Virus genome (UHGV): UHGV-0211239
Origin: a virus
Direction: 5' to 3' (one strand)
DNA length: 41,840 nucleotides
Shown: positions 1 to 40,308 of the stretch, in pieces
How positions within the stretch are numbered: position 1 is the stretch's first letter
Layout of the letters: every line of letters starts with the position of its first letter
Program-made: the position numbers and the translations under genes
Notes under the pieces: model-generated
Seen by the model: the letters and a program-made list of their open reading frames with translations, nothing else
What the model was told of the DNA's origin: nothing
Databases searched by the model: none

Positions 1-9
1 ATTGAGAAT

Positions 10-30
10 ATAGTAGAGTGCTTCTATCAT
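10..30. promoter_or_regulatory. Arc operator (Oarc) in the divergent Pant/Pmnt control region
   Basis: Sequence atagtagagtgcttctatcat is the reverse complement of the 21-bp P22 arc operator as I recall it (two symmetric TAGA boxes); lies between arc and mnt. Confidence 0.75.
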
Positions 31-57: not shown

Positions 58-306
58 ATGGCTAGAGACGATCCGCACTTTAACTTCCGTATGCCTTTGG
101 AAGTAAGAGAAAAATTGAAATTAAGAGCAGAGGCTAACGGAAGGTCAATGAACTCTGAGTTATTACAAATCGTTCAGGATGCTCTCTCAAAGCCATCACC
201 GATTGCAGGCTATCGAGACGAAGCTGAACGCTTGGCTGATCAGCAAGCAGAAATTGTTAAGAAGATGGTGTTTGAAACCCTGAAAAAAATGTACGAGACC
301 AGATAG
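58..306 (+). CDS. mnt: Mnt repressor (ribbon-helix-helix, Arc/MetJ family)
   Basis: 82 aa; N-terminus MARDDPHFNFRMP..EVREKLK.RAEANGRSMNSELLQIVQDAL matches P22 Mnt; divergent from arc; SD ggggtga upstream. Confidence 0.9.
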   Translation: MARDDPHFNFRMPLEVREKLKLRAEANGRSMNSELLQIVQDALSKPSPIAGYRDEAERLADQQAEIVKKMVFETLKKMYETR

Positions 307-348
307 GTCAATGTTTGTTCGTTGATATAAAATAACAAGGTATACATT

Positions 349-948
349 GTGATTGAGATAGGCGTTATGGCCATCCTGAATCAAGAGCCAGGAAAAATTG
401 AAAACGTTTTTTCTGACATATCAACATCTATCGAGCGTTCAATTTCAGACTTTGATCGCAGTCATAGCGGCTCTTTGTCTAAAAAACAGGCTTCTGAAGC
501 TCTTAGCAAGATCTACTGCGTTATGTCACCTGTAGAGGAAGTTTGCAAAAAGTACATTACATTCATTGACATATTAAGTAATGGTACGGAAGAAGATATT
601 TCCTCACTTGATATTCAACATGACGATGTAGATATGTTGAACGATCAAATATCTAAGCTTGATTATGGTATCGCGAAACTGTTGTATACCTTCTTCATCG
701 CTGAGAACAGCGATGCGTGGAAGCCCCATATGTCAACTCTTACAACAATGAAAAACCACTCAATAAATACTTTTATAGAATACAAAAGGCTAACTATGGG
801 GCTTGTGACGCTAGCAATGCAGCACATACCACTATCATATGCTGAACCTGAAGAGTTCACTGAAGAAGAGTTGGCTTCATTCAAGAAATCAGTTGAAGAT
901 TCACATAAAAGATTTGGCATGGAAGCACCAAAATGGAAAACCGCATAA
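349..948 (+). CDS. Hypothetical protein (first gene of cluster at sieA position)
   Basis: 199-aa ORF, GTG start at 349 (alternative ATG at 367); no motif recognised; 3' end overlaps next ORF by 16 nt. Confidence 0.5.
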   Translation: MIEIGVMAILNQEPGKIENVFSDISTSIERSISDFDRSHSGSLSKKQASEALSKIYCVMSPVEEVCKKYITFIDILSNGTEEDISSLDIQHDDVDMLNDQISKLDYGIAKLLYTFFIAENSDAWKPHMSTLTTMKNHSINTFIEYKRLTMGLVTLAMQHIPLSYAEPEEFTEEELASFKKSVEDSHKRFGMEAPKWKTA

Positions 949-1352
949 GCATTGTTGTAGATGCAGCGGCTGGACCATTAGAACAATACTTTGCGAAGGC
1001 TCTTGCAAACTACAAAAACAGAGGCACCGTTTCAGCTTATCTTGGTAAGATTGGTGGGTTTGAGAGAAACCATCACGCCGTCTTATCGGGAATTTACAAG
1101 TCGCACATCAGGATCCCTGGAGTAGATGATCCTTGGTTAAAAACAACGCCAATACATCGTAGAGTTAGCGATAACTTTTTGATATTTGCGGTACACAACA
1201 CATATCCAATTCATATCCAGATCATTGCTATCATTAAACCTGATGGTCATGAGAAGGTAAAAAAACTATTGCCAGCCATCATTGATATAACTGAAAAAAG
1301 ATTCCAATCTCTAAATGAGAGGGAGCTTAACTCGTTGATTTCATACAAATAA
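933..1352 (+). CDS. Hypothetical protein; weak RelE/ParE-like beta-strand/His pattern near C-terminus (unverified)
   Basis: 139-aa ORF, ATG at 933 overlapping upstream gene; segment HRRVSDNFLIFAV...IHIQIIAIIKPDGHEK is reminiscent of toxin folds, by eye only. Confidence 0.45.
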   Translation: MENRISIVVDAAAGPLEQYFAKALANYKNRGTVSAYLGKIGGFERNHHAVLSGIYKSHIRIPGVDDPWLKTTPIHRRVSDNFLIFAVHNTYPIHIQIIAIIKPDGHEKVKKLLPAIIDITEKRFQSLNERELNSLISYK

Positions 1353-1374
1353 AATATCAACTAAGGGGGTTAGT

Positions 1375-1704
1375 GTGCTTGAATGGTTTCTGTTGGCTGC
1401 ATTAGTCGTTTCTGGTTTGGTGTATGAGTATCGAATGCACTCTCTAACAAAAAAAATAGGAATTCTAGAAAACGAATATTGTGCTCTCAAATCCTCACTG
1501 GAACGTGATCAAGGAGACTTAAAAATCTCTCTGTCTAGCATTGAGCGTTCTATAGAGAGCCTAGAGGATAAGGTTGATCGTATAAAGAATGAGGATATTC
1601 ATGATATTAAGGACGACATATCCTTCTTAAAATCTTGGTTGAAAAATGTTGGGAAAATTGCCACATCAACACGAGATAAGCTCAATCCATCCATGGATGA
1701 CTAA
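1375..1704 (+). CDS. Small membrane-anchored coiled-coil protein
   Basis: 109 aa, GTG start with SD aaggggg; N-terminal hydrophobic helix WFLLAALVVSGLVY then heptad-rich region; convergent with and abutting gene 16. Confidence 0.5.
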   Translation: MLEWFLLAALVVSGLVYEYRMHSLTKKIGILENEYCALKSSLERDQGDLKISLSSIERSIESLEDKVDRIKNEDIHDIKDDISFLKSWLKNVGKIATSTRDKLNPSMDD

Positions 1705-3825
1705 TTACTCCTGTGCCATTCCACTTAGCGATGCCACAATTCCAGCCCTTGCTAAACGCTGGAACTCTTCGTTTCCTAGTGCCTCGCGTATTGCTTTTAC
1801 GGCGGCCTTATTTGCCATAAATCTGCGTTCCGCCGCCGCTAATGCACCATCACTTGCCCCAACCTTAACTGCCTTTGTTGCCTCTTGAACAGCCTTTTCA
1901 ATAGCGTAACGACCGCTTCTAGTTGCGGATAATTTCGCTATCGCTCCTTTTGCCATTGCATCAATTGCTCCACCTGCAGCGCCACCCGCTATTGCTCCAA
2001 TAACGCCTCCTCCAGAGAACCCTGCGATAGTGCCAGTAGTTCTAAAAGCGCCAGACAATGCGCTCTCTAAAACTGGATGAAGGCCATTCTCAAGAGTGCT
2101 AATGGCTGGCATAGATCGCCCTGTCTGTTCAACATATCGAAGTGGCTTTGTTGCTGCTCTTGCAAGTTCTCCGTATGAACTTGTAATCCTGCCAAGTTCT
2201 GGAGAATATCGACTAATTGCCTTCACGTTTTGTGGGGTAAGAATAGTCGCGATATGCTTAATTCCAGCCTCTTCAGACTTACCTCCGCGTACCCCTTGCG
2301 ACATTGCATCTTGTAATATTGATGCAATTGCTGGCGCGCGTTCCGACTCAGGTAGGGCGCTTATTATTTTATGGAACTGACCTGTTCCACTTTTTGCTGA
2401 GCCCTGTAACGCCTTAGAGCCATTATTTACCAACTGATCAGTTGCAAGGTCTCTGCCAAACGCTGCTTCAGCCTGTTCTTGTGCTGTAAATCTTGCCTTT
2501 GACAGGTCATTAGCTTTTTGCCAGTCATCAAGAAAACCGCCATTTTGAGCCATTATGCGCATATCTTCCGTTGCTGCATCACGAAGCTCAGCCATGCGCC
2601 TTGCCGTATTTGCCTCACCAGACCTTATATACTTCTGCTCTGCGTCAGCAAGTTTACTTCGCCATGCCTTCATGGCATCAAACGTGATTCCTTTTTTACC
2701 AGTTTTAGCATAAGCAGATGCGAATTGTTTCATCTCAGGAGTTAGCGGCATGCCAGCCAAAATATCACCCTGAATTGTAGCGTTCAGGTTTGACATTCTG
2801 GCCTTTGCGTCAGGCATCGTGGAGCGGACGCTATCCCATGCGGCCTTTTCTGAATTTTTCATTTTATCAATGCTTGCCAAAACCCTCTGTTTTATGGCTG
2901 CACTTTTTTCTGATGCAGTTCCTGCTTCAGCCCCAAACTCATCCAATGCTGAGTTAAATTTCGACTCTATTTCACTGAATGCTTTGGTGTGTGCATCCTG
3001 TGTAATTCCGGGCTTTGACGCCAGAATCCCCTCCGCCTGAGCAAGACCACGACTACCTGATCTCATGCCAGGAGTTAATGCGTTGATATCTATTCCAGCA
3101 GTATCTGCTGCTTTTGCTATTTCGTCTGACACGTTAGCTGACTGTCTGGCAATAATCTCTCTTCCTGTACCAGACTTTGCCATTTTCGAAACATCATTAG
3201 CAGAATTCAGTGCTGCACCACCAAGAGCCTGTGAAACCCTTGGCGCAATAACGCGCCCGACACCTGAAAGAACGCCTTGAGCACCAATATTGATACCACC
3301 GTTAATGGCAGCATTTTGTGCAAAGTCGCCCTCCTGATTTGCAGCATCAGCAAGAGAACCTGCAATCATGTTTCCTGCGGAACCGATATCTCCAGCGAGC
3401 TTTGCTGGCGCTCCAGCAACTTTTGCCGCTGTGCCAATTGGCAGGAGATACCCACCAATTGTTTCACCGGCTTGCGCGTAAGGGTCTGTCGGTCGATCTA
3501 CTGGACGATAGACATCATCCAAAACCTTGGGGCCACCAAGCCCCTGACTGATTGCATTAATCAGACTTGCGCCACCCTGCAATACGTCAAATGGTATGTT
3601 TACCAGACCACGACCAGCCTGTTCTGCAATTTGCCCTGCACTTTGACCACCAGTGAGCCAGTCAGTAGCTTTTCCCACCAGAGATTGTTCTTCTGGCTGC
3701 GATTGGTTTTGAGTGGATTGATCACCAGAAGACAGCATCTGAGCAATGCGACGTGCTCCCTCAGTATCGCCGGCAGCATCAGCATTCCTTAACGCCGTCA
3801 TCAACTGTTCACGACTATAGGCCAT
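1705..3825 (-). CDS. Ejection (internal/injection) protein, P22 gp16-like
   Basis: 706 aa; last of the gp7-gp20-gp16 triplet downstream of gp14; Ala/Gly-rich low-complexity composition. Confidence 0.8.
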
Positions 3826-5201
3826 TACTGCCCTCCGAGATATTTGCTAATTAATTCGTCATCGGACAATTGCTGTTGAGGTTGGCTATCGCCATAACTT
3901 GAGGAAAGAAAACGTTTTGCCGCAGAGTTCAATGATTCACCCTTCTTAACATCCATCCCCATGATGTTTCGGTTGCGATCAGATTGTCCTGGGCTGCCAT
4001 TTGCACTCATCCACTCTGACCTAAACTCGTTGAACTTCGCGTTATTACTTTCCATTTTTGCCATACCCCTTAACCATCGAGCCATGACCATTGGATTATC
4101 CGTTTCGCTTGGAATGCCTTTCCTTGCAAACTCAATATCCTTATCTGATGCAGGGCCGGGAGGGAGAAGCTTGGTTGCCTGCGCATTGGCTAGTTGGTTG
4201 AATCTAATCCGCATATCTCGGAGGTAGTTATCTTGCCCCGTAAGCTTAGTGAACATATTTTCAGCGTTACCGAACAAACCAGGAGTTGGCTTCTCCTTCT
4301 CAAGCGTGTCAGCAAGCGTTGTCATTGAATCGGCAGCATTACGACTAGCTGCCGCATCACCTGCTGATTTTTCTATAGCCTTTTCCATGTTCACGGATAG
4401 TTTTGGCGCAGCATTAATAAGTTCATCGGCCTTCTTTTGTGCCTGTTGTACTTCAAAACCGAATTTCTGCTTATCAAGTGCCAGTCTTTCTGCTGCAAGT
4501 CCGTGTCCTGTCATTGCTGACTGATAGGAAAGGTTTTGCCCTCTCGCCTGAAGTGCTTCTCCAGCCTGATTGCTGCGGATTGTCTCTGCCAGCCTACCTC
4601 GGTCAATCTCACGACCTGCCATCTTGTCCTGAACATTGAAGTAATCAATCGGACCAAGAGCAGCCATCCCAAGGTGATCAACAAACTCACCAAATCCTGA
4701 AGGATTCTGCTGATACATCTGAGCAACGTTGTTAGGATCAACACCGACGCGCGCCAGTTCCTTGGCGTTGTTTTGCAGCCATGATTGCATTGCTTCTGGA
4801 GACGATGATGCAAGGCGTGCGCCAGCCGCTAATGTGCCGATAGAATTGCGCTGGTCTTCATCAATGAATCCCATGCCTTTACGAACAGATTCAATCTGGT
4901 CTGGATATTGAGTAGCCAACTGACGCAAAGCACCGCGATCACCAGACGCATAAGCATTAGCGTATGCCTGCTGAAATTCTTTCTGCCGCTGAGCCTGCTT
5001 TTCCTGCTGAAAAACACCCGCAATACCTGAAATACCTTGCAAAGCAGTCAACCCAATATTATTGGCTCCTGAACGCTCAATATCATTGTTCTGCCTGATA
5101 AGCTGAAGCGTATTGCCGATGTCATTTACGCTCGGAGCGTTTGAGTTCACACCACCGATACCGGCCAACAATCCGCCATTTGATCCTTGCCAAGTAGCCA
5201 T
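3825..5201 (-). CDS. Ejection protein, P22 gp20-like
   Basis: 458 aa; position between gp7 and gp16 homologs; start overlaps gp16 stop. Confidence 0.8.
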
Positions 5202-26269: not shown

Positions 26270-26977
26270 ATGGTTCAGAATGAAAAAGTGCGCAAAGAAT
26301 TCGCCCAGCGGCTAGCGCAAGCCTGTAAAGAAGCTGGTCTTGATGAACATGGTAGGGGAATGGCTATAGCCCGTGCCCTTTCTCTTTCGTCCAAAGGCGT
26401 TAGCAAATGGTTTAATGCTGAGTCTTTACCGCGTCAGGAAAAAATGAATGCGCTTGCGAAATTTCTAAACGTTGATGTTGTTTGGCTTCAGCACGGCACT
26501 TCGTTAAATGGAGCGAATGATGAAGATACTCTTTCATTTGTTGGCAAATTAAAAAAAGGGTTAGTGCGCGTGGTTGGTGAGGCAATTCTTGGTGTTGATG
26601 GTGCCATCGAGATGACCGAAGAGCGCGATGGGTGGCTCAAGATTTATAGCGATGATCCAGATGCCTTTGGTCTTCGTGTGAAAGGAGACAGCATGTGGCC
26701 TAGAATAAAATCAGGAGAATATGTACTCATTGAGCCTAACACCAAAGTATTCCCGGGTGATGAGGTGTTTGTCAGAACCGTTGAAGGACACAACATGATC
26801 AAAGTTCTTGGCTATGACAGAGACGGAGAATACCAGTTTACAAGCATCAACCAGGACCATAGGCCAATAACGTTGCCTTATCATCAAGTAGCAAAGGTGG
26901 AGTATGTGGCTGGTATTCTGAAGCAATCTCGCCATCTGGATGACATCGAGGCAAGGGAGTGGCTGAAAAGTTCGTGA
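26270..26977 (+). CDS. CI-like prophage repressor (HTH_XRE + S24 LexA-like peptidase domain)
   Basis: 235 aa; N-terminal HTH (MAIARALSLSSKGVSKWF), C-terminal GDSMWP motif with downstream Lys. Confidence 0.9.
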   Translation: MVQNEKVRKEFAQRLAQACKEAGLDEHGRGMAIARALSLSSKGVSKWFNAESLPRQEKMNALAKFLNVDVVWLQHGTSLNGANDEDTLSFVGKLKKGLVRVVGEAILGVDGAIEMTEERDGWLKIYSDDPDAFGLRVKGDSMWPRIKSGEYVLIEPNTKVFPGDEVFVRTVEGHNMIKVLGYDRDGEYQFTSINQDHRPITLPYHQVAKVEYVAGILKQSRHLDDIEAREWLKSS

Positions 26978-27067: not shown

Positions 27068-27625
27068 TTGGCAAAAATAGATGATTATCAGCCAAGCCAA
27101 GTAGAAGTTGATAAAGTACTTTATTGTAAAAAAATAGTTAACTTTTCTGGCGTTAAATGGAAACAGAAACCAAGTCGCTCTGATATGTGGCTACAAACTC
27201 ATATCATCCCCTTGGATGAGGATTGTATACCTATACAAGGGCTAAAGTTTGAACTGAAATGGAAACCAGATCAGGATTCAGAACCTGATGACCCGATTTC
27301 TTACCCTAAAATAAATATTATTGCTTTCTATCATAACAAGAGGGTTTTCGCGGTAGATACCTATCACTTTGACAAACACACGAATAGTTACAAGGTCGAT
27401 CATCCGAAGTACCAAGATATCATTTACGGTGCTCACTACCATGTATACTATGAAGAAGCTGGATACTATAGTGATAGAATAGCGTTTCCAATCGAAGATG
27501 ACATAAACCCAGATGACCTGGTAGGGTATTGGAATTACTTCTGTAAACATCTGAACATAACTTACTCTGGGAGAATACCTTTACCACTTGAAGATGAGTC
27601 GGGGCAAATGGGGTTTGGAATATGA
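27068..27625 (+). CDS. Hypothetical protein A of candidate two-gene system at rexAB position
   Basis: 185 aa, TTG start with SD agggcgg; AT-rich codon usage; His/Tyr-rich segment HYHVYYEEAGYY; no recognised domain. Confidence 0.55.
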   Translation: MAKIDDYQPSQVEVDKVLYCKKIVNFSGVKWKQKPSRSDMWLQTHIIPLDEDCIPIQGLKFELKWKPDQDSEPDDPISYPKINIIAFYHNKRVFAVDTYHFDKHTNSYKVDHPKYQDIIYGAHYHVYYEEAGYYSDRIAFPIEDDINPDDLVGYWNYFCKHLNITYSGRIPLPLEDESGQMGFGI

Positions 27626-28374
27626 TGTGCTCAACAGTGATCTCACAACTAGGTTTCGAATGCCATCCAATAGGCAAGACCTTGAGAATTATCAGTCCAT
27701 TCACTTACTGTGATGATGGAGAGCATGTCGGTGCCTTTATCCGTGAAGTCAATGGTAGGTATTTAGTTAGTGATAGATGCGATGCCTTAATGAATATGGA
27801 GGCAAGAGGGATCTCGCTTACCAAAAAACGACTTGATGAGATACGACAATTACTGCTTAAAGAAGGCGCAGAGCTCAATGATCGAGGAGAAATCATTGCT
27901 TGGGCAACAGAAAAGGATGTCGGTGCGATTACATCGAACATAATTAGAGCTGGTATACTCGCATCAACTTTGTCGTTAGACTGGTATCAGCCAGTTCAAG
28001 CTGAAAAGTTTGAAAGTATGGTTATTGATTATCTATATCACACAGAGCTTAGAGACGCACTTTCTCTTCGTGAAAACGTATATGGCTTGAGTGGACATCA
28101 AATTACCGTCCCTGTAACAATAAAAACCGACATACCTAAATACGTTTTTACATCAAGCGTGAAACACGGAGGAAGCTGGAATAGTGCTTACTCATTGCTT
28201 GGGAAACTAATTGATCTTAAAGCATCAAGTGAGGAGTATAACAACAGATTTGTTGTTATAGACAGCGAAGCAATTGGTGACCAAATGCAACAACTCTCCT
28301 TACTCTTCCATGAATCAAGCCAAGTTCTACCATTCTCCAAAAGAGAGACTTGGGTTAAGAGACTTGCAGCATAA
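27622..28374 (+). CDS. Hypothetical protein B of candidate two-gene system
   Basis: 250 aa; ATG overlaps stop of gene A (ATGA); AT-rich; followed by a terminator; no recognised domain. Confidence 0.6.
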   Translation: MMCSTVISQLGFECHPIGKTLRIISPFTYCDDGEHVGAFIREVNGRYLVSDRCDALMNMEARGISLTKKRLDEIRQLLLKEGAELNDRGEIIAWATEKDVGAITSNIIRAGILASTLSLDWYQPVQAEKFESMVIDYLYHTELRDALSLRENVYGLSGHQITVPVTIKTDIPKYVFTSSVKHGGSWNSAYSLLGKLIDLKASSEEYNNRFVVIDSEAIGDQMQQLSLLFHESSQVLPFSKRETWVKRLAA

Positions 28375-28863: not shown

Positions 28864-29247
28864 ATGACACGCAGAACTCAGTTCAAAGGCAATTCACGTT
28901 CTCGTCGTCGTGAGCGTTTAAAGGCAAAGGCATTAGCTAACGGCGTACTGGCCCGCGAAGAAGCAATAAGTTCAGAAGTATTACACCGCCCTACTCTAAG
29001 CAGAGCGCAGATTCAGGCTAAAGGTACTCACGAAACGCCTGAGCGCATAGAAGACGCTAAGCCAATTAAGTTCATTGCACAGGACGTGATCTGGCAACAG
29101 AAAGAATACAGACGCAATCTGGAGCGAGCGGCCATTGTGTACGCGAATGAGTTTGGACATAAGCAACCAGAAACTGGTGTATGTCTTCCAAACGTAGCCA
29201 TTTACGCGGCAGGATACCGGAAATCAAAACAACTGACAGCGAGGTAA
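28864..29247 (+). CDS. N-like transcription antiterminator (P22 gene 24 analogue)
   Basis: 127 aa; N-terminal arginine-rich motif RRTQFKGNSRSRRRERLKAKA; first gene after the PL/nutL region. Confidence 0.7.
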   Translation: MTRRTQFKGNSRSRRRERLKAKALANGVLAREEAISSEVLHRPTLSRAQIQAKGTHETPERIEDAKPIKFIAQDVIWQQKEYRRNLERAAIVYANEFGHKQPETGVCLPNVAIYAAGYRKSKQLTAR

Positions 29248-37250: not shown

Positions 37251-37922
37251 ATGGTGATTGATGCAATGTTAAGCGTTCAGATGACTCCACAAGCAAAAGT
37301 TAGCTTCGAGGAGCAATGTTTTTTTCATGCTTCAGGTCTTGTTGTTGCCCCAATAAATGTTGGAGCATTCTCCTACTTTGGCGCTAATTGTATGCTCGGC
37401 GGCTTTACGATGGGTAGATTTTGTTCAGTTGCTCCAGGAGTAAAAATTGGCCTTGGCGAGCATGAAACTGGGTATTTTTCTACGCATCCTTTTTTCTTTG
37501 GCTCAAAAAATGGTTTTAAAATCCCTGATGGTATAGGAATGCAACGCGACCTCTCTCAACAGAAGCATGGTATACCAAGAATTGGTCATGACGTATGGAT
37601 AGGTGCAAATGCGGTTATCAGGCGAGGTATAACTATTGGTACTGGCGCTGTTATTGCTGCTGGCGCTATTGTCACCAAAAATGTCGAGCCATATTCAATC
37701 GTAGGTGGCGTTTCTGCAAAACACCTAGGGTACAGATTTGAGGAATCAATCATCAAAGAGTTACTGGATAGCCAATGGTGGGAATATGATTTAAGCTCAT
37801 TTATTGGGATTGATACAAGGACACCGACGACTTTTTTAGAGCAGTTTAATGCTGTAAAAGATAAAAAGAAGGCATCTTATAAGAGATTTACAATTCTTCC
37901 ATCCGGTGAAATTGTTGAATAG
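37251..37922 (+). CDS. Hexapeptide-repeat (left-handed beta-helix) acetyltransferase; candidate surface-polysaccharide O-acetylase
   Basis: 223 aa; repeats [31 protein letters not shown]; AT-rich; convergent with tailspike at the P22 seroconversion locus. Confidence 0.75.
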
Positions 37923-37941: not shown

Positions 37942-40308
37942 TTAAATAAACATAAGAATAAACATCAGAAGTTCCTCGTATCTGATACCATACTGATAAC
38001 CAGCAGGTTTAATAATAACCTGCCTTCCTGTGTAATATTCCTCGTCGTACCACTCTCCTGTTTCATTGTTTTTAACACTCCTAATTAATACCTCTGGAGC
38101 ATAAATATCATCCCATTCATCATAACACCAGAACGCATAGTTATTAGGGTCAAGACCGTATTTTCTGAGAATATTACCTACAGTTTGTGCACCAACACCG
38201 AAATGAATCCGAGCGCCATCACTCTTGATCTTTACTGCATCTTTAAATTTAAACCTCCAGATATTTTTCTTTATTTCAAGCGCAGCAAGACGCTCTGATT
38301 CTGTTGTTTTCTCGTCAGCCTCAATACGCAATTTCAGCTCTTCATTCGACGTGTTGATACTGCCAGTACCAGCGTATACCTGTGACCATCGAAATGCTGA
38401 TGTTCCGTTTGAGTTAACATTATCAACAGTTGGTTTTATAAGGCCAGAAAAATGAGTTTCAGGTGATGTATGAAGAAGATATCCGCCAGAATCGTTTTTT
38501 GTGCGTAATTCTATAGAGTCTACAATTATTCCACTGCGACGAATAATGATAGCGTTATTACCTTGTGCACCATTGTCTTTCTGAGTGGATAGTGTGTATC
38601 CGGTACGAGTATCTATCCTCCATCTTTTGGTATCTTCTGATGCTTCCTGATTATAAAGATAAATAGAGTTATCAGTGTAATTATTTTTGCCATCAATATT
38701 TGTAAGTGTAAATTTGTTATTTACTTTGTCATCATTGACCATGAAATTGGCAAGAGTGTAGAGAGGAGATGCAGTATACTGGCTGCAATTAAAACCACGT
38801 GCGTTTTGTATGTTAAGTAATGTTGTGACATTAGCATTAATGCTAATATTGGAAAAGTTTGTCGCCTGATTTGCTCCATGTATTGATGATGTTACTCCTA
38901 TCTGAGCTCCAATATCCAATGTACCAAAACTTACATTAATGAAGTTGTTTGCATCGCCACCATCTATAATTATTCCTTTTTTAGTCGTCGTATAACCTGA
39001 TGCACTGCTAATCTCCAATCCATTAATGGTGCACACTCTTGGTCTGATGAGTCTAATTCCTACCCATTCATTTCCGTGGTCATATCCTCCTCCTGCTCTA
39101 TGTATGGCTAGTCCATTAGCAATCAAAAGAAATCTGTTATCAAGATTAATAGGGTGAAGCTGGCTATTAATGATAACGTTTGTCCATATAGACTCACCAT
39201 ACGCATAGCGATTTGATTCGAACACTCTATCCTGAGCATCATAAACACCGTTTAGGGATCTAGCAACATCGACATTGGTAAGATTGAAATATGTCTTCTG
39301 CTTAATTTCAAAAAAATTGGCAACGTTATGCGTTGTGATATCACTCACACGCATGGATAAAATACCTTCTTCTGGAGCGGTGCGAATGAATCCATCAAGG
39401 AACTGTTCATTATAACTTTTGGCTATCTGATAACATCCAACAGCATCAATGCGTTCGATTGTGAACTGCCAACTATCACCACAGTTAAAAGACCATTCCC
39501 AACCGTACTTCTGTGCGAATTCATCAGAATCAATATTTGCAGTCTCAGAACAGAAAGATAAAAATCTAAATGTTGGTTTTGGCCTTAGATGATTAAGCCC
39601 GACACCTCTTGGGGTATATATGGCATTAGCTCCATTCCCGCCTTTGCTTTTAATTGTAAGGTGACTTAAACCAAATTCAACATCATGCTTAGTTGGTGCA
39701 GCGAAAACAAATCCATCTTTTGGTGATGTGGTATTATCAAACACAATAACTGTTTTACCCTGTCCATCGCCACACATATTCACTGGTGGTATATTAACTG
39801 GTCCAATTAAATTATATGTTCCAGTTGGAATATATAACTTTCCACCATCTCCAAGAGCATTTGCTGCTGCAATAAATGCCACCGTATCATCGTTAACACC
39901 GTCACCTTTCGCCCCATAATGCTGTGGCGTAATTAACAGCATACGGTCAGAAAAAATCTCTTCCCTAAGTTGATCAGGATCGTATTTTAATACATTTGGA
40001 AAATAAAACTGCTGAGTGCCATATGCATCATATACAGCCATAGAATGGCCTTGCACAGTTACGAATTTGGCAATCTGCCCGTTATATACCGGATATCCAG
40101 CAGCGTTAATGATGATTGGTTGCGAAACAGGAACATGAGAGCCGTCTTCGTTCTCTACATAAACCTGAATCTGGTTTTCAGGATTTACCGGGTCAGTATC
40201 AATTTTACCGATATAAATTTTGCCATTGGCTACGGATTTAAAAGAACGCGCCATAGTGAAGAGTTGCGAAGGCATACTCACTACAACATTGGCTGTAATG
40301 TCTGTCAT
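37942..40308 (-). CDS. Tailspike: P22-type head-binding N-domain, pectate-lyase-like beta-helix, C-terminal intramolecular chaperone (S74-like)
   Basis: 788 aa; N-terminal about 110 aa matches P22 gp9 ([11 protein letters not shown]...VLKYDPDQ); [13 protein letters not shown] motif; C-terminal SNEELK...[10 protein letters not shown] resembles self-cleaving chaperone domains. Confidence 0.8.

Follow-up and report, generated by a model that had tools for sequence, protein, structure and literature searches.

What occupies the slot between the repressor gene mnt and gene 16 in the virus genome UHGV-0211239, where phage P22 holds sieA? The stretch analysed here, called the window throughout, comprises 41,840 nucleotides of a P22-like Escherichia coli prophage of the CUS-3/HK620 kind, and the locus in question (positions 349-1704) carries three open reading frames, ORF1 to ORF3, on its plus strand. 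A sequence-only reading had taken the three for one cluster, probably co-transcribed from the mnt promoter Pmnt and forming replacement exclusion or toxin-type cargo. We find that ORF1 and ORF2 are a conserved pair and make up a mobile cassette independent of ORF3, which is hkcB, a separate gene tied to gene 16 and not a part of the cassette. We put at about 0.65 the probability that the pair is a bicistronic type II toxin-antitoxin cassette, expressed in lysogens, in which a toxin of the YafO clade is joined by an antitoxin of a new family.

The genes of the locus

349-948, plus strand: ORF1, 199 amino acids, GTG start; putative antitoxin
933-1352, plus strand: ORF2, 139 amino acids; YafO-family toxin
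933-948, plus strand: overlap of ORF1 and ORF2, 16 nucleotides, the ATG of ORF2 lying within the K-W codons of ORF1
1375-1704 (with its ribosome-binding site from 1360), plus strand: ORF3, hkcB, 109 amino acids
311-1358 (edges approximate), plus strand: mobile cassette of ORF1 and ORF2, about 1.05 kilobases, delimited by DNA alignments

The positions, the common orientation and the order of the three frames, after mnt and before gene 16, agree with the sequence-only reading, as do the exact 16-nucleotide overlap of the first two and the placement of the whole in the slot that P22 fills with sieA. The region is 99.9% identical to prophages of avian pathogenic E. coli (APEC) K1 chromosomes and 95.6% identical to the CUS-3 genes ECRS218_0007 and ECRS218_0008 plus hkcB. 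The ratios of nonsynonymous to synonymous substitution rates are 0.19 for ORF1, 0.10 for ORF2 and 0.23 for hkcB, indicating purifying selection on all three; because of these ratios and of full-length homologues in other genera, the three are real genes and not chance frames. The profile and structure searches that had been proposed as a check placed ORF2 in the YafO family with a RelE-type fold, left ORF1 without a name and identified ORF3 as HkcB.

ORF2, a distant relative of YafO

The weak RelE/ParE-like pattern noticed by eye in the second frame has been sharpened to a family. ORF2 matches the Pfam family YafO_toxin (PF13957) with E=1.1e-11 and 45.1 bits (gathering cut-off 25), residues 26-122 aligning to model positions 2-98 of 101, and its RefSeq/NCBI annotation already reads 'type II toxin-antitoxin system YafO family toxin'. 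It is about 20% identical to YafO of E. coli K-12 (19% by BLASTP) and fails the NCBIfam equivalog model of that protein, NF007377, with 14.2 bits against a cut-off of 153. Profile comparison of the two with hhalign gives a probability of 89% and aligns the motifs xHI(R/H)x, R..(S/T)D and IAI(I/L)KP(D/E)xH, and the basic and histidine residues kept across the ORF2 clade, whose invariant positions include K56, H58, R77, H88 and H106, align with those of K-12 YafO. By these comparisons ORF2 falls in a distant YafO clade and is not the orthologue of K-12 YafO. Its predicted model, which is confident, has a RelE/BECR-type (RelE/HigB-like) fold, and the fold search is headed by HigB, YafQ and RelE toxins.

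The mRNA interferase YafO acts in a translation-dependent way and is neutralised by YafN (PMC2814082), and PF13957 is counted among 13 BECR-fold toxin families with the gene order antitoxin-toxin (PMC11980606). By analogy with the characterised YafO members, ORF2 would be toxic through RNA cutting and growth arrest. Literature searches on YafO, both in UTI89 and in connection with prophage defence, turned up no work on the function of these genes.

ORF1, a putative antitoxin of an unnamed family

ORF1 had no match in Pfam, NCBIfam, PADLOC or PDB sequence searches, and the only family that it matches is phrog_18235, to which no function is assigned. Members are very rare: among 1.84 billion cluster representatives a profile search recovered 18, and their sources are E. 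coli, Salmonella, Pectobacterium, Xenorhabdus, Photorhabdus and metagenomes. In the K1 strains UTI89, IHE3034, UM146 and APEC O18 the counterpart of ORF1 is still labelled hypothetical; with ORF2 itself already annotated publicly, the new element is ORF1 as an antitoxin family.

The start of ORF1 at GTG 349 is backed by N-terminal conservation in distant homologues, ATG 367 being the alternative. An AlphaFold2 model was obtained with a predicted local distance difference test score of 82. In this model a flexible N-terminus of low confidence (residues 1-44), containing the strongly conserved motif ERSISDFDRSH (29-39), is followed by three long helices packed into a bundle (45-157), an acidic linker (158-171) and a C-terminal helix with tail (172-199) that carries SHKRFGMEAPKW and ends in the motif S-H-x3-G-x3-P-x-W. 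Fold searches with the model returned generic helical bundles only and no DNA-binding fold, and neither Pfam nor the fold search found a helix-turn-helix, ribbon-helix-helix, AbrB or Phd domain in ORF1, DNA binding being still possible. Classical autoregulation by ORF1 is unsupported because no DNA-binding fold was detected. The Panacea domain (SocA/PanA, PF13274) was likewise not found by Pfam. ORF1 was also considered as a relative of YafN, which was rejected at a probability of 1.8% in the comparison of the ORF1 profile with YafN.

The end of the protein follows its partner. ORF1-family members with another tail (PEWVKSGDDFVKW) precede a different partner of 125-130 amino acids, and while the tail changes with the type of partner, the N-terminal ERSISDFDRSH motif does not. 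For this reason the toxin-binding region is put in the C-terminus of ORF1, where the C-terminal helix and tail would make the contact. The partner of the PEWVKSGDDFVKW-tailed relatives lies at the following positions:

L005, 2065-2457
L014, 889-1266
L015, 881-1123

This protein has the conserved motifs LPGRNK, HYHVGH and GDWTS and no Pfam or PADLOC match; it may represent an undescribed toxin family sharing the ORF1 antitoxin scaffold. That the 130 amino acid partner of a distant ORF1 homologue is a hidden YafO relative was rejected, with an hhalign probability of 0.1% and no match in Pfam or PADLOC.

Pairing of ORF1 with ORF2

A profile scan of the fetched loci located an ORF1-family gene immediately upstream and on the same strand in every fetched ORF2-clade locus with upstream sequence, except in Avibacterium; the count includes 9 loci reached via the toxin alone and is inflated by the many loci that were fetched through ORF1 itself. 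Divergent toxins from E. coli and Pantoea prophages, 35-39% identical to ORF2, have partners of 190 amino acids whose identity to ORF1 is only about 16% and which are still recognised by the ORF1 profile (E=2e-21 and 5e-12; hhalign probability 98.5%), and these partners share the S-H-x3-G-x3-P-x-W ending. The Xenorhabdus pair has diverged jointly, to 43% and 54% identity, and both there and in Pectobacterium the 16-nucleotide overlap is retained; the position of the ORF2 start codon inside ORF1 codons suggests translational coupling. ORF1 is acidic, with an isoelectric point of 4.9, and ORF2 basic, with one of 9.6. Co-divergence, complementary charges and the switching of the tail with the partner type are among the grounds on which the two are read as antitoxin and toxin. 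As in type II toxin-antitoxin systems, two small, adjacent and co-oriented genes, of 199 then 139 amino acids, overlap, and the pair is conserved as a unit that moves independently of its neighbours.

These same features bear on a different proposal, in which ORF1 is a phage sensor, chaperone or effector and ORF2 a catalytically altered YafO-like RNA-binding partner, the two acting as a two-component system. The size of ORF1, its lack of a DNA-binding domain and its place in no known antitoxin family are consistent with such a role, as are the great distance of ORF2 from characterised YafO and the location of the most conserved motif, ERSISDFDRSH, in the low-confidence N-terminus, where it does not track the partner type. 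However, the pair has what classically marks an antitoxin followed by its toxin, namely the order of the genes and their overlap, complementary charges, joint divergence and a tail that switches with the partner, and the clade-conserved basic and histidine residues of ORF2 align with those of K-12 YafO. We therefore regard this proposal as very doubtful and retain the toxin-antitoxin reading of the pair.

A mobile cassette

The pair was found in the following contexts:

Pectobacterium: lone two-gene island between an ATP-binding cassette transporter and gcvP
Xenorhabdus: two distinct housekeeping sites
Photorhabdus: chromosomal
Lambdoid prophage: distant pair downstream of cI, in the rexAB position
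Phage nin region
Phage tail genes: two distinct clusters
Unrelated phage: downstream of mnt

In the window the left edge of the cassette lies a few bases past the mnt stop codon, where homology to the chromosomal copies of Pectobacterium and Xenorhabdus starts, and the right edge lies at most about 10 nucleotides after the ORF2 stop codon, between that stop, at which the same homology ends, and position ~1359, at which homology to HK620 starts. Of 5426 complete E. coli genomes, 44 carry the cassette, at 99% identity or more, always chromosomal and in a single copy, and the carriers include the well-studied extraintestinal pathogenic K1 strains UTI89, IHE3034, UM146 and APEC O18. No homologue of ORF1 was found in the plasmid collection.

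HkcB, a separate gene tied to gene 16

ORF3 is 97-98% identical to HkcB of HK620 and 49-50% identical to the allele of ε34 and CUS-3; the family, phrog_5962, has no assigned function, and no functional study of HkcB was found in the literature. The claim of the sequence-only reading that the third protein is a membrane-anchored coiled coil has held: the N-terminal residues 1-19 are hydrophobic (Kyte-Doolittle 1.48), and the heptad pattern at about residues 24-90 was reached by only 1-3 of 1000 shuffles. The protein thus begins with a membrane anchor, continues as a coiled coil and ends in a conserved tail, LKSWLxNVGxIATSTRDKLNxSMDD, and from this layout HkcB is predicted to be a single-anchor inner-membrane coiled-coil protein. 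A strong ribosome-binding site, AACTAAGGGGGTTAGT-GTG, belongs to the gene itself, and both this site and the start are conserved in HK620, ε34 and CUS-3 regardless of what lies upstream.

Among 58 related viral contigs with hkcB only 4 also carry ORF1 and ORF2, and in nearly all of the 58 in which that flank is present hkcB abuts gene 16. CUS-3 joins the same cassette to an hkcB allele of the ε34 type, 50% identical to that of the window, and the recombination joint between cassette and hkcB falls at ~1359, a short way before the conserved ribosome-binding site of hkcB. That the three genes are a single superinfection-exclusion operon replacing sieA, in which HkcB works with ORF1 and ORF2, would fit their shared orientation and tight spacing with no terminator in between, the occupation of the P22 sieA position and the same three-gene order in CUS-3; yet at least five other contexts have the pair but no hkcB, 54 of the 58 contigs have hkcB but not the pair, one and the same cassette is combined in the window and in CUS-3 with alleles only half identical, and no similarity to SieA was seen. 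We consider a common operon of this kind highly improbable, and the single cluster of the sequence-only reading has to be divided into the ORF1-ORF2 cassette on the one hand and hkcB on the other.

P22 SieA (one of three known types, the other two not being tested) gave nothing below E=2 in BLASTP and tblastn comparisons with ORF1-3 and the whole window. SieA shows at least three hydrophobic peaks, HkcB a single N-terminal segment, and ORF1 and ORF2 none typical of membrane spans. Replacement exclusion in the sense of a SieA relative is therefore not supported: all three proteins lack relationship to P22 SieA as well as a multi-pass topology like that of SieA. No defence model was matched either. 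What stands of the functional claim is toxin-type cargo for ORF1 and ORF2, exclusion being a positional analogy for HkcB only.

This analogy can be pursued through gene product 16 (gp16). Alleles were compared in the window (1375-1704 and 1705-2004), in CUS-3 (L001), in HK620 (L002) and in L003, and the hkcB allele, of HK620 or ε34 type, co-varies with the last 100 residues of gp16, which are 94-99% identical within a type and 73-77% between types; there is no such co-variation with the first 300 residues. In P22, the mutations that escape SieA affect the C-terminal region of gp16 and that of gp20 (PMC10883804). Together with the nearly constant adjacency of hkcB to gene 16 at the 3' end of the latter, a strong ribosome-binding site that belongs to hkcB itself and an orientation expected of a lysogen-expressed gene, this raises the idea that HkcB, rather than the pair, is the counterpart of SieA and interferes at the inner membrane with the ejection conduit that gp16 and gp20 provide for an incoming P22-like phage. 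Against it, HkcB resembles SieA neither in sequence nor in topology, with one hydrophobic segment against several; the positive-inside rule, applied to the sequences, would put its coiled coil on the cytoplasmic side, whereas the conduit is periplasmic; and the allele linkage could reflect a functional link or mere physical adjacency. We hold such a role to be unlikely.

The annotated gp16 proteins of CUS-3 and HK620 are 78% identical in a global alignment, and the paper on SieA states only 26% (PMC10883804).

Predicted expression in lysogens

58-306, plus strand: mnt, Arc/Mnt-family repressor of immunity region I (Pfam Arc E=1e-27, Repressor_Mnt E=5.5e-15)
2-30, plus strand: Pmnt, promoter-like, TTGAGA-17-TATCAT
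35-7, minus strand: Pant, promoter-like, TTGACA-17-TATATT, divergent from Pmnt
323-340, plus strand: element upstream of the cassette, with an extended -10-like TG-n-TATAAA (323-331) and the ribosome-binding site AAGG (337-340)

The mnt gene is about 86% identical to that of P22 at the nucleotide level, and the arrangement of Pmnt and Pant and their hexamers are identical in P22. No terminator-like site was found anywhere in 1-2000, and the spacer between mnt and ORF1 is unstructured; in P22, terminator-like hairpins follow both mnt and orf59a. Because no terminator is predicted, read-through from Pmnt into ORF1-3 is plausible. The co-transcription from Pmnt that the sequence-only reading had assumed is thus in line with the common orientation and the missing terminator, as a prediction.

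A second source of transcripts may lie in the cassette. TATAAAAT and the AAGG are common to the window, Pectobacterium and Xenorhabdus in a comparison of the aligned sequences by hand; the chromosomal copies also have a -35-like TTGCGT or TTGCTG, whereas the phage copy is without a -35-like element and reads TG-n-TATAAA. As a promoter this internal -10-like element is a lead only, which may add to the read-through from Pmnt. In HK620 and ε34 an opposite-strand gene intervenes, and for this reason hkcB would be expressed there without read-through from mnt. The orientation against late transcription and the absence of a terminator after mnt lead us to expect expression in lysogens; the transcription pattern of 349-1704 in that state is one that we infer from the letters of the locus.

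The interval between mnt and hkcB

Taken over the P22-like contigs that bear hkcB (L032-L089), with the cargo named by Pfam matches, the interval between mnt and hkcB is variable and holds either hkcC with orf59a, or ε34 gp15, or cargo genes:

6 loci, e.g. L034: SocA/Panacea antitoxin
L052: a second YafO toxin with an unrelated partner of 198 amino acids, opposite strand
L042: PIN protein with a protein of 239 amino acids
L086 and SEN22: HicA with a DUF1902 protein
L040: Clp protease-like protein with a protein of 164 amino acids
L037: P63C protein

The interval is a hot spot rich in toxin-antitoxin-type cargo, and P22 holds sieA in the same slot. Two candidates from this survey were rejected: the 198 amino acid partner of the second YafO toxin as a member of the ORF1 family, and ε34 gp15 (139 amino acids, opposite strand) as an inverted ORF2, the latter having a BLASTP E-value of 14 and only a weak PEGA match.

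These surroundings also bear on what the pair is for. As a toxin-antitoxin system it could serve addiction, killing or arresting the cell on loss or inactivation of the prophage, or selfish persistence, with no effect on infecting phages. The cassette stands alone in chromosomes between housekeeping genes, with its own promoter-like -35/-10, as selfish islands do; no defence-system model is matched; and surveys list many orphan YafO partners without a link to defence (PMC10790755, PMC3141249). On the other side, the pair recurs at putative lysogen-expressed cargo positions beside repressors (mnt, cI) and shares its slot with other toxin-antitoxin-type cargo, both typical of prophage-borne defence, and an integrated prophage is not lost by segregation like a plasmid, none of the three points being decisive. 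We see such a role, addiction or selfish persistence with no effect on infecting phages, as rather unlikely.

Proposed function of the pair

The reading that we prefer can be summarised as the following mechanism. The cassette would have entered the stretch of changing cargo that separates mnt from hkcB, within the immI region of a prophage of the CUS-3/HK620 kind, and would be expressed in lysogens through read-through from Pmnt, possibly also from its own retained -10 element. ORF2, as a member of the RelE/ParE (BECR-fold) superfamily, would cut mRNA under translation and thereby halt protein synthesis, by analogy with characterised members. ORF1 would be its cognate neutraliser, from an unnamed family and without the usual DNA-binding domain, gripping ORF2 through the C-terminal helix and the S-H-x3-G-x3-P-x-W tail. 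The likeliest benefit would be that the lysogen is protected in the manner of abortive infection, or that the prophage is stabilised. In this scheme the toxicity, the neutralisation by ORF1, the region of binding and the biological role are all what we infer for the pair.

Several observations weigh against this toxin-antitoxin reading. An identity of only about 20% to K-12 YafO and a score below the equivalog cut-off mean that the target of ORF2 could differ, and for its clade toxicity and neutralisation are presumed from sequence relationship. ORF1 is twice the size of a typical type II antitoxin and has no DNA-binding fold, so that it could be a sensor or adaptor and not a simple antidote. 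The upstream partner of the Avibacterium homologue (165 amino acids) shows no detectable relation to ORF1, and to this the inflation of the pairing count has to be added. The defence models of PADLOC-DB v2 gave weak partial matches only with the cluster proteins (E 0.002-0.006). As to expression, a consensus scan found no promoter between mnt and ORF1, and the predicted start of the putative internal promoter would coincide with the ribosome-binding site.

A bolder version, which we consider quite improbable, would make the ORF1 family an antitoxin that lacks a DNA-binding domain, senses phage and then releases the YafO-clade RNase, with modular tails for different toxins and with the mnt-hkcB interval as a dedicated defence hot spot. 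The helical bundle and the ERSISDFDRSH motif would detect that a phage is infecting the cell or that expression of host genes has been shut off. If this were true, the system would be an abortive-infection defence for P22-like, lambdoid and other lysogens, and the second tail variant would control an unrelated, undescribed toxin of ~130 amino acids.

For the plainer toxin-antitoxin reading the class of mechanism is familiar, and the novelty lies in the definition of a partner family, in repeated carriage by prophages and in the hot spot. As the partner of the whole YafO clade, ORF1 would define an antitoxin family and provide a directly testable pair. According to earlier surveys the partners of YafO toxins are mostly unidentified (PMC10790755, on E. 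coli; PMC3141249), and YafO was not seen on phages in the second of these (PMC3141249), with which the repeated prophage carriage of this clade contrasts. The interval between mnt and hkcB is a place to mine for further lysogen-expressed functions in P22-like phages, and HkcB is set apart as a candidate of its own for study alongside SieA.

Other features of the window

1705-3825, minus strand: gene 16, ejection (DNA-transfer) protein, converging on hkcB and abutting it with zero spacer; context, outside the module
26270-26977: cI-type repressor
27068-28374, plus strand: second overlapping gene pair, 185 amino acids (weak DUF6978) and 250 amino acids (DUF1828), with a 4-nucleotide overlap
28864-29247: N
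37251-37922, plus strand: hexapeptide-repeat acetyltransferase, beside the tailspike
37942-40308, minus strand: tailspike

The Mnt operator palindrome spans the two ends of the window, and the far end of the window carries the Arc gene, a small open reading frame and the Ant gene. The 5' end of gene 16 (3826-3873, minus strand) differs from that of APEC E19035, HK620 and CUS-3; the frame used there for gene 16 has two stop codons in the window, and the open reading frame starts at 3825 (MAYSREQ...), with 706 amino acids against about 720. The tailspike combines a head-binding domain of the P22 type with a pectate-lyase-like body and differs from the CUS-3 endosialidase; therefore the phage probably targets a surface polysaccharide other than that of CUS-3. 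The second gene pair, lying between the cI-type repressor and N, occupies the lambda rexAB slot and matches the PADLOC candidate defence system PDC-M24 (A E=4.6e-4; B E=4.4e-10).

Comparison with known systems

The closest characterised relative of the pair is yafNO of E. coli K-12, whose antitoxin YafN is of the Phd/YefM type. The two systems share the Pfam family PF13957, the predicted RelE-like fold, the order antitoxin-then-toxin and conserved H, R and KPxxH motifs that align with ORF2. They differ in that the toxins are only about 20% identical and the equivalog model is failed, in that YafN has 97 amino acids whereas the partner here is an unrelated 199 amino acid helical bundle, and in that yafNO belongs to the dinB operon and the present module is a mobile one carried by phage. 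In structure the ORF2 model is matched best by the ribosome-dependent mRNA interferases of the BECR fold, namely HigB2 (5mje), HigB1 (7nbu), HigB (6af3), YafQ (4q2u) and RelE (1wmi/2khe).

With P22 SieA the locus has in common the position between mnt and gene 16, against late transcription, and, as predicted for the locus, expression from the prophage (PMC10883804); unlike it, none of the three frames is homologous to SieA, which has several hydrophobic segments and whose gene has its own promoter (PMC10883804).

In phage lambda, rexAB is prophage-borne cargo downstream of cI. The ORF1-ORF2 cassette resembles rexAB and PanAT-type immunity-adjacent cargo as putative lysogen-expressed cargo beside a repressor gene, the distant ORF1-ORF2 pair of a lambdoid prophage sitting exactly in the rexAB position and Panacea-antitoxin cargo occupying the same mnt-hkcB slot in sister phages. 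ORF1 and ORF2, whose defence phenotype is a putative one, differ from RexAB and Panacea in that they have no sequence relation to either.

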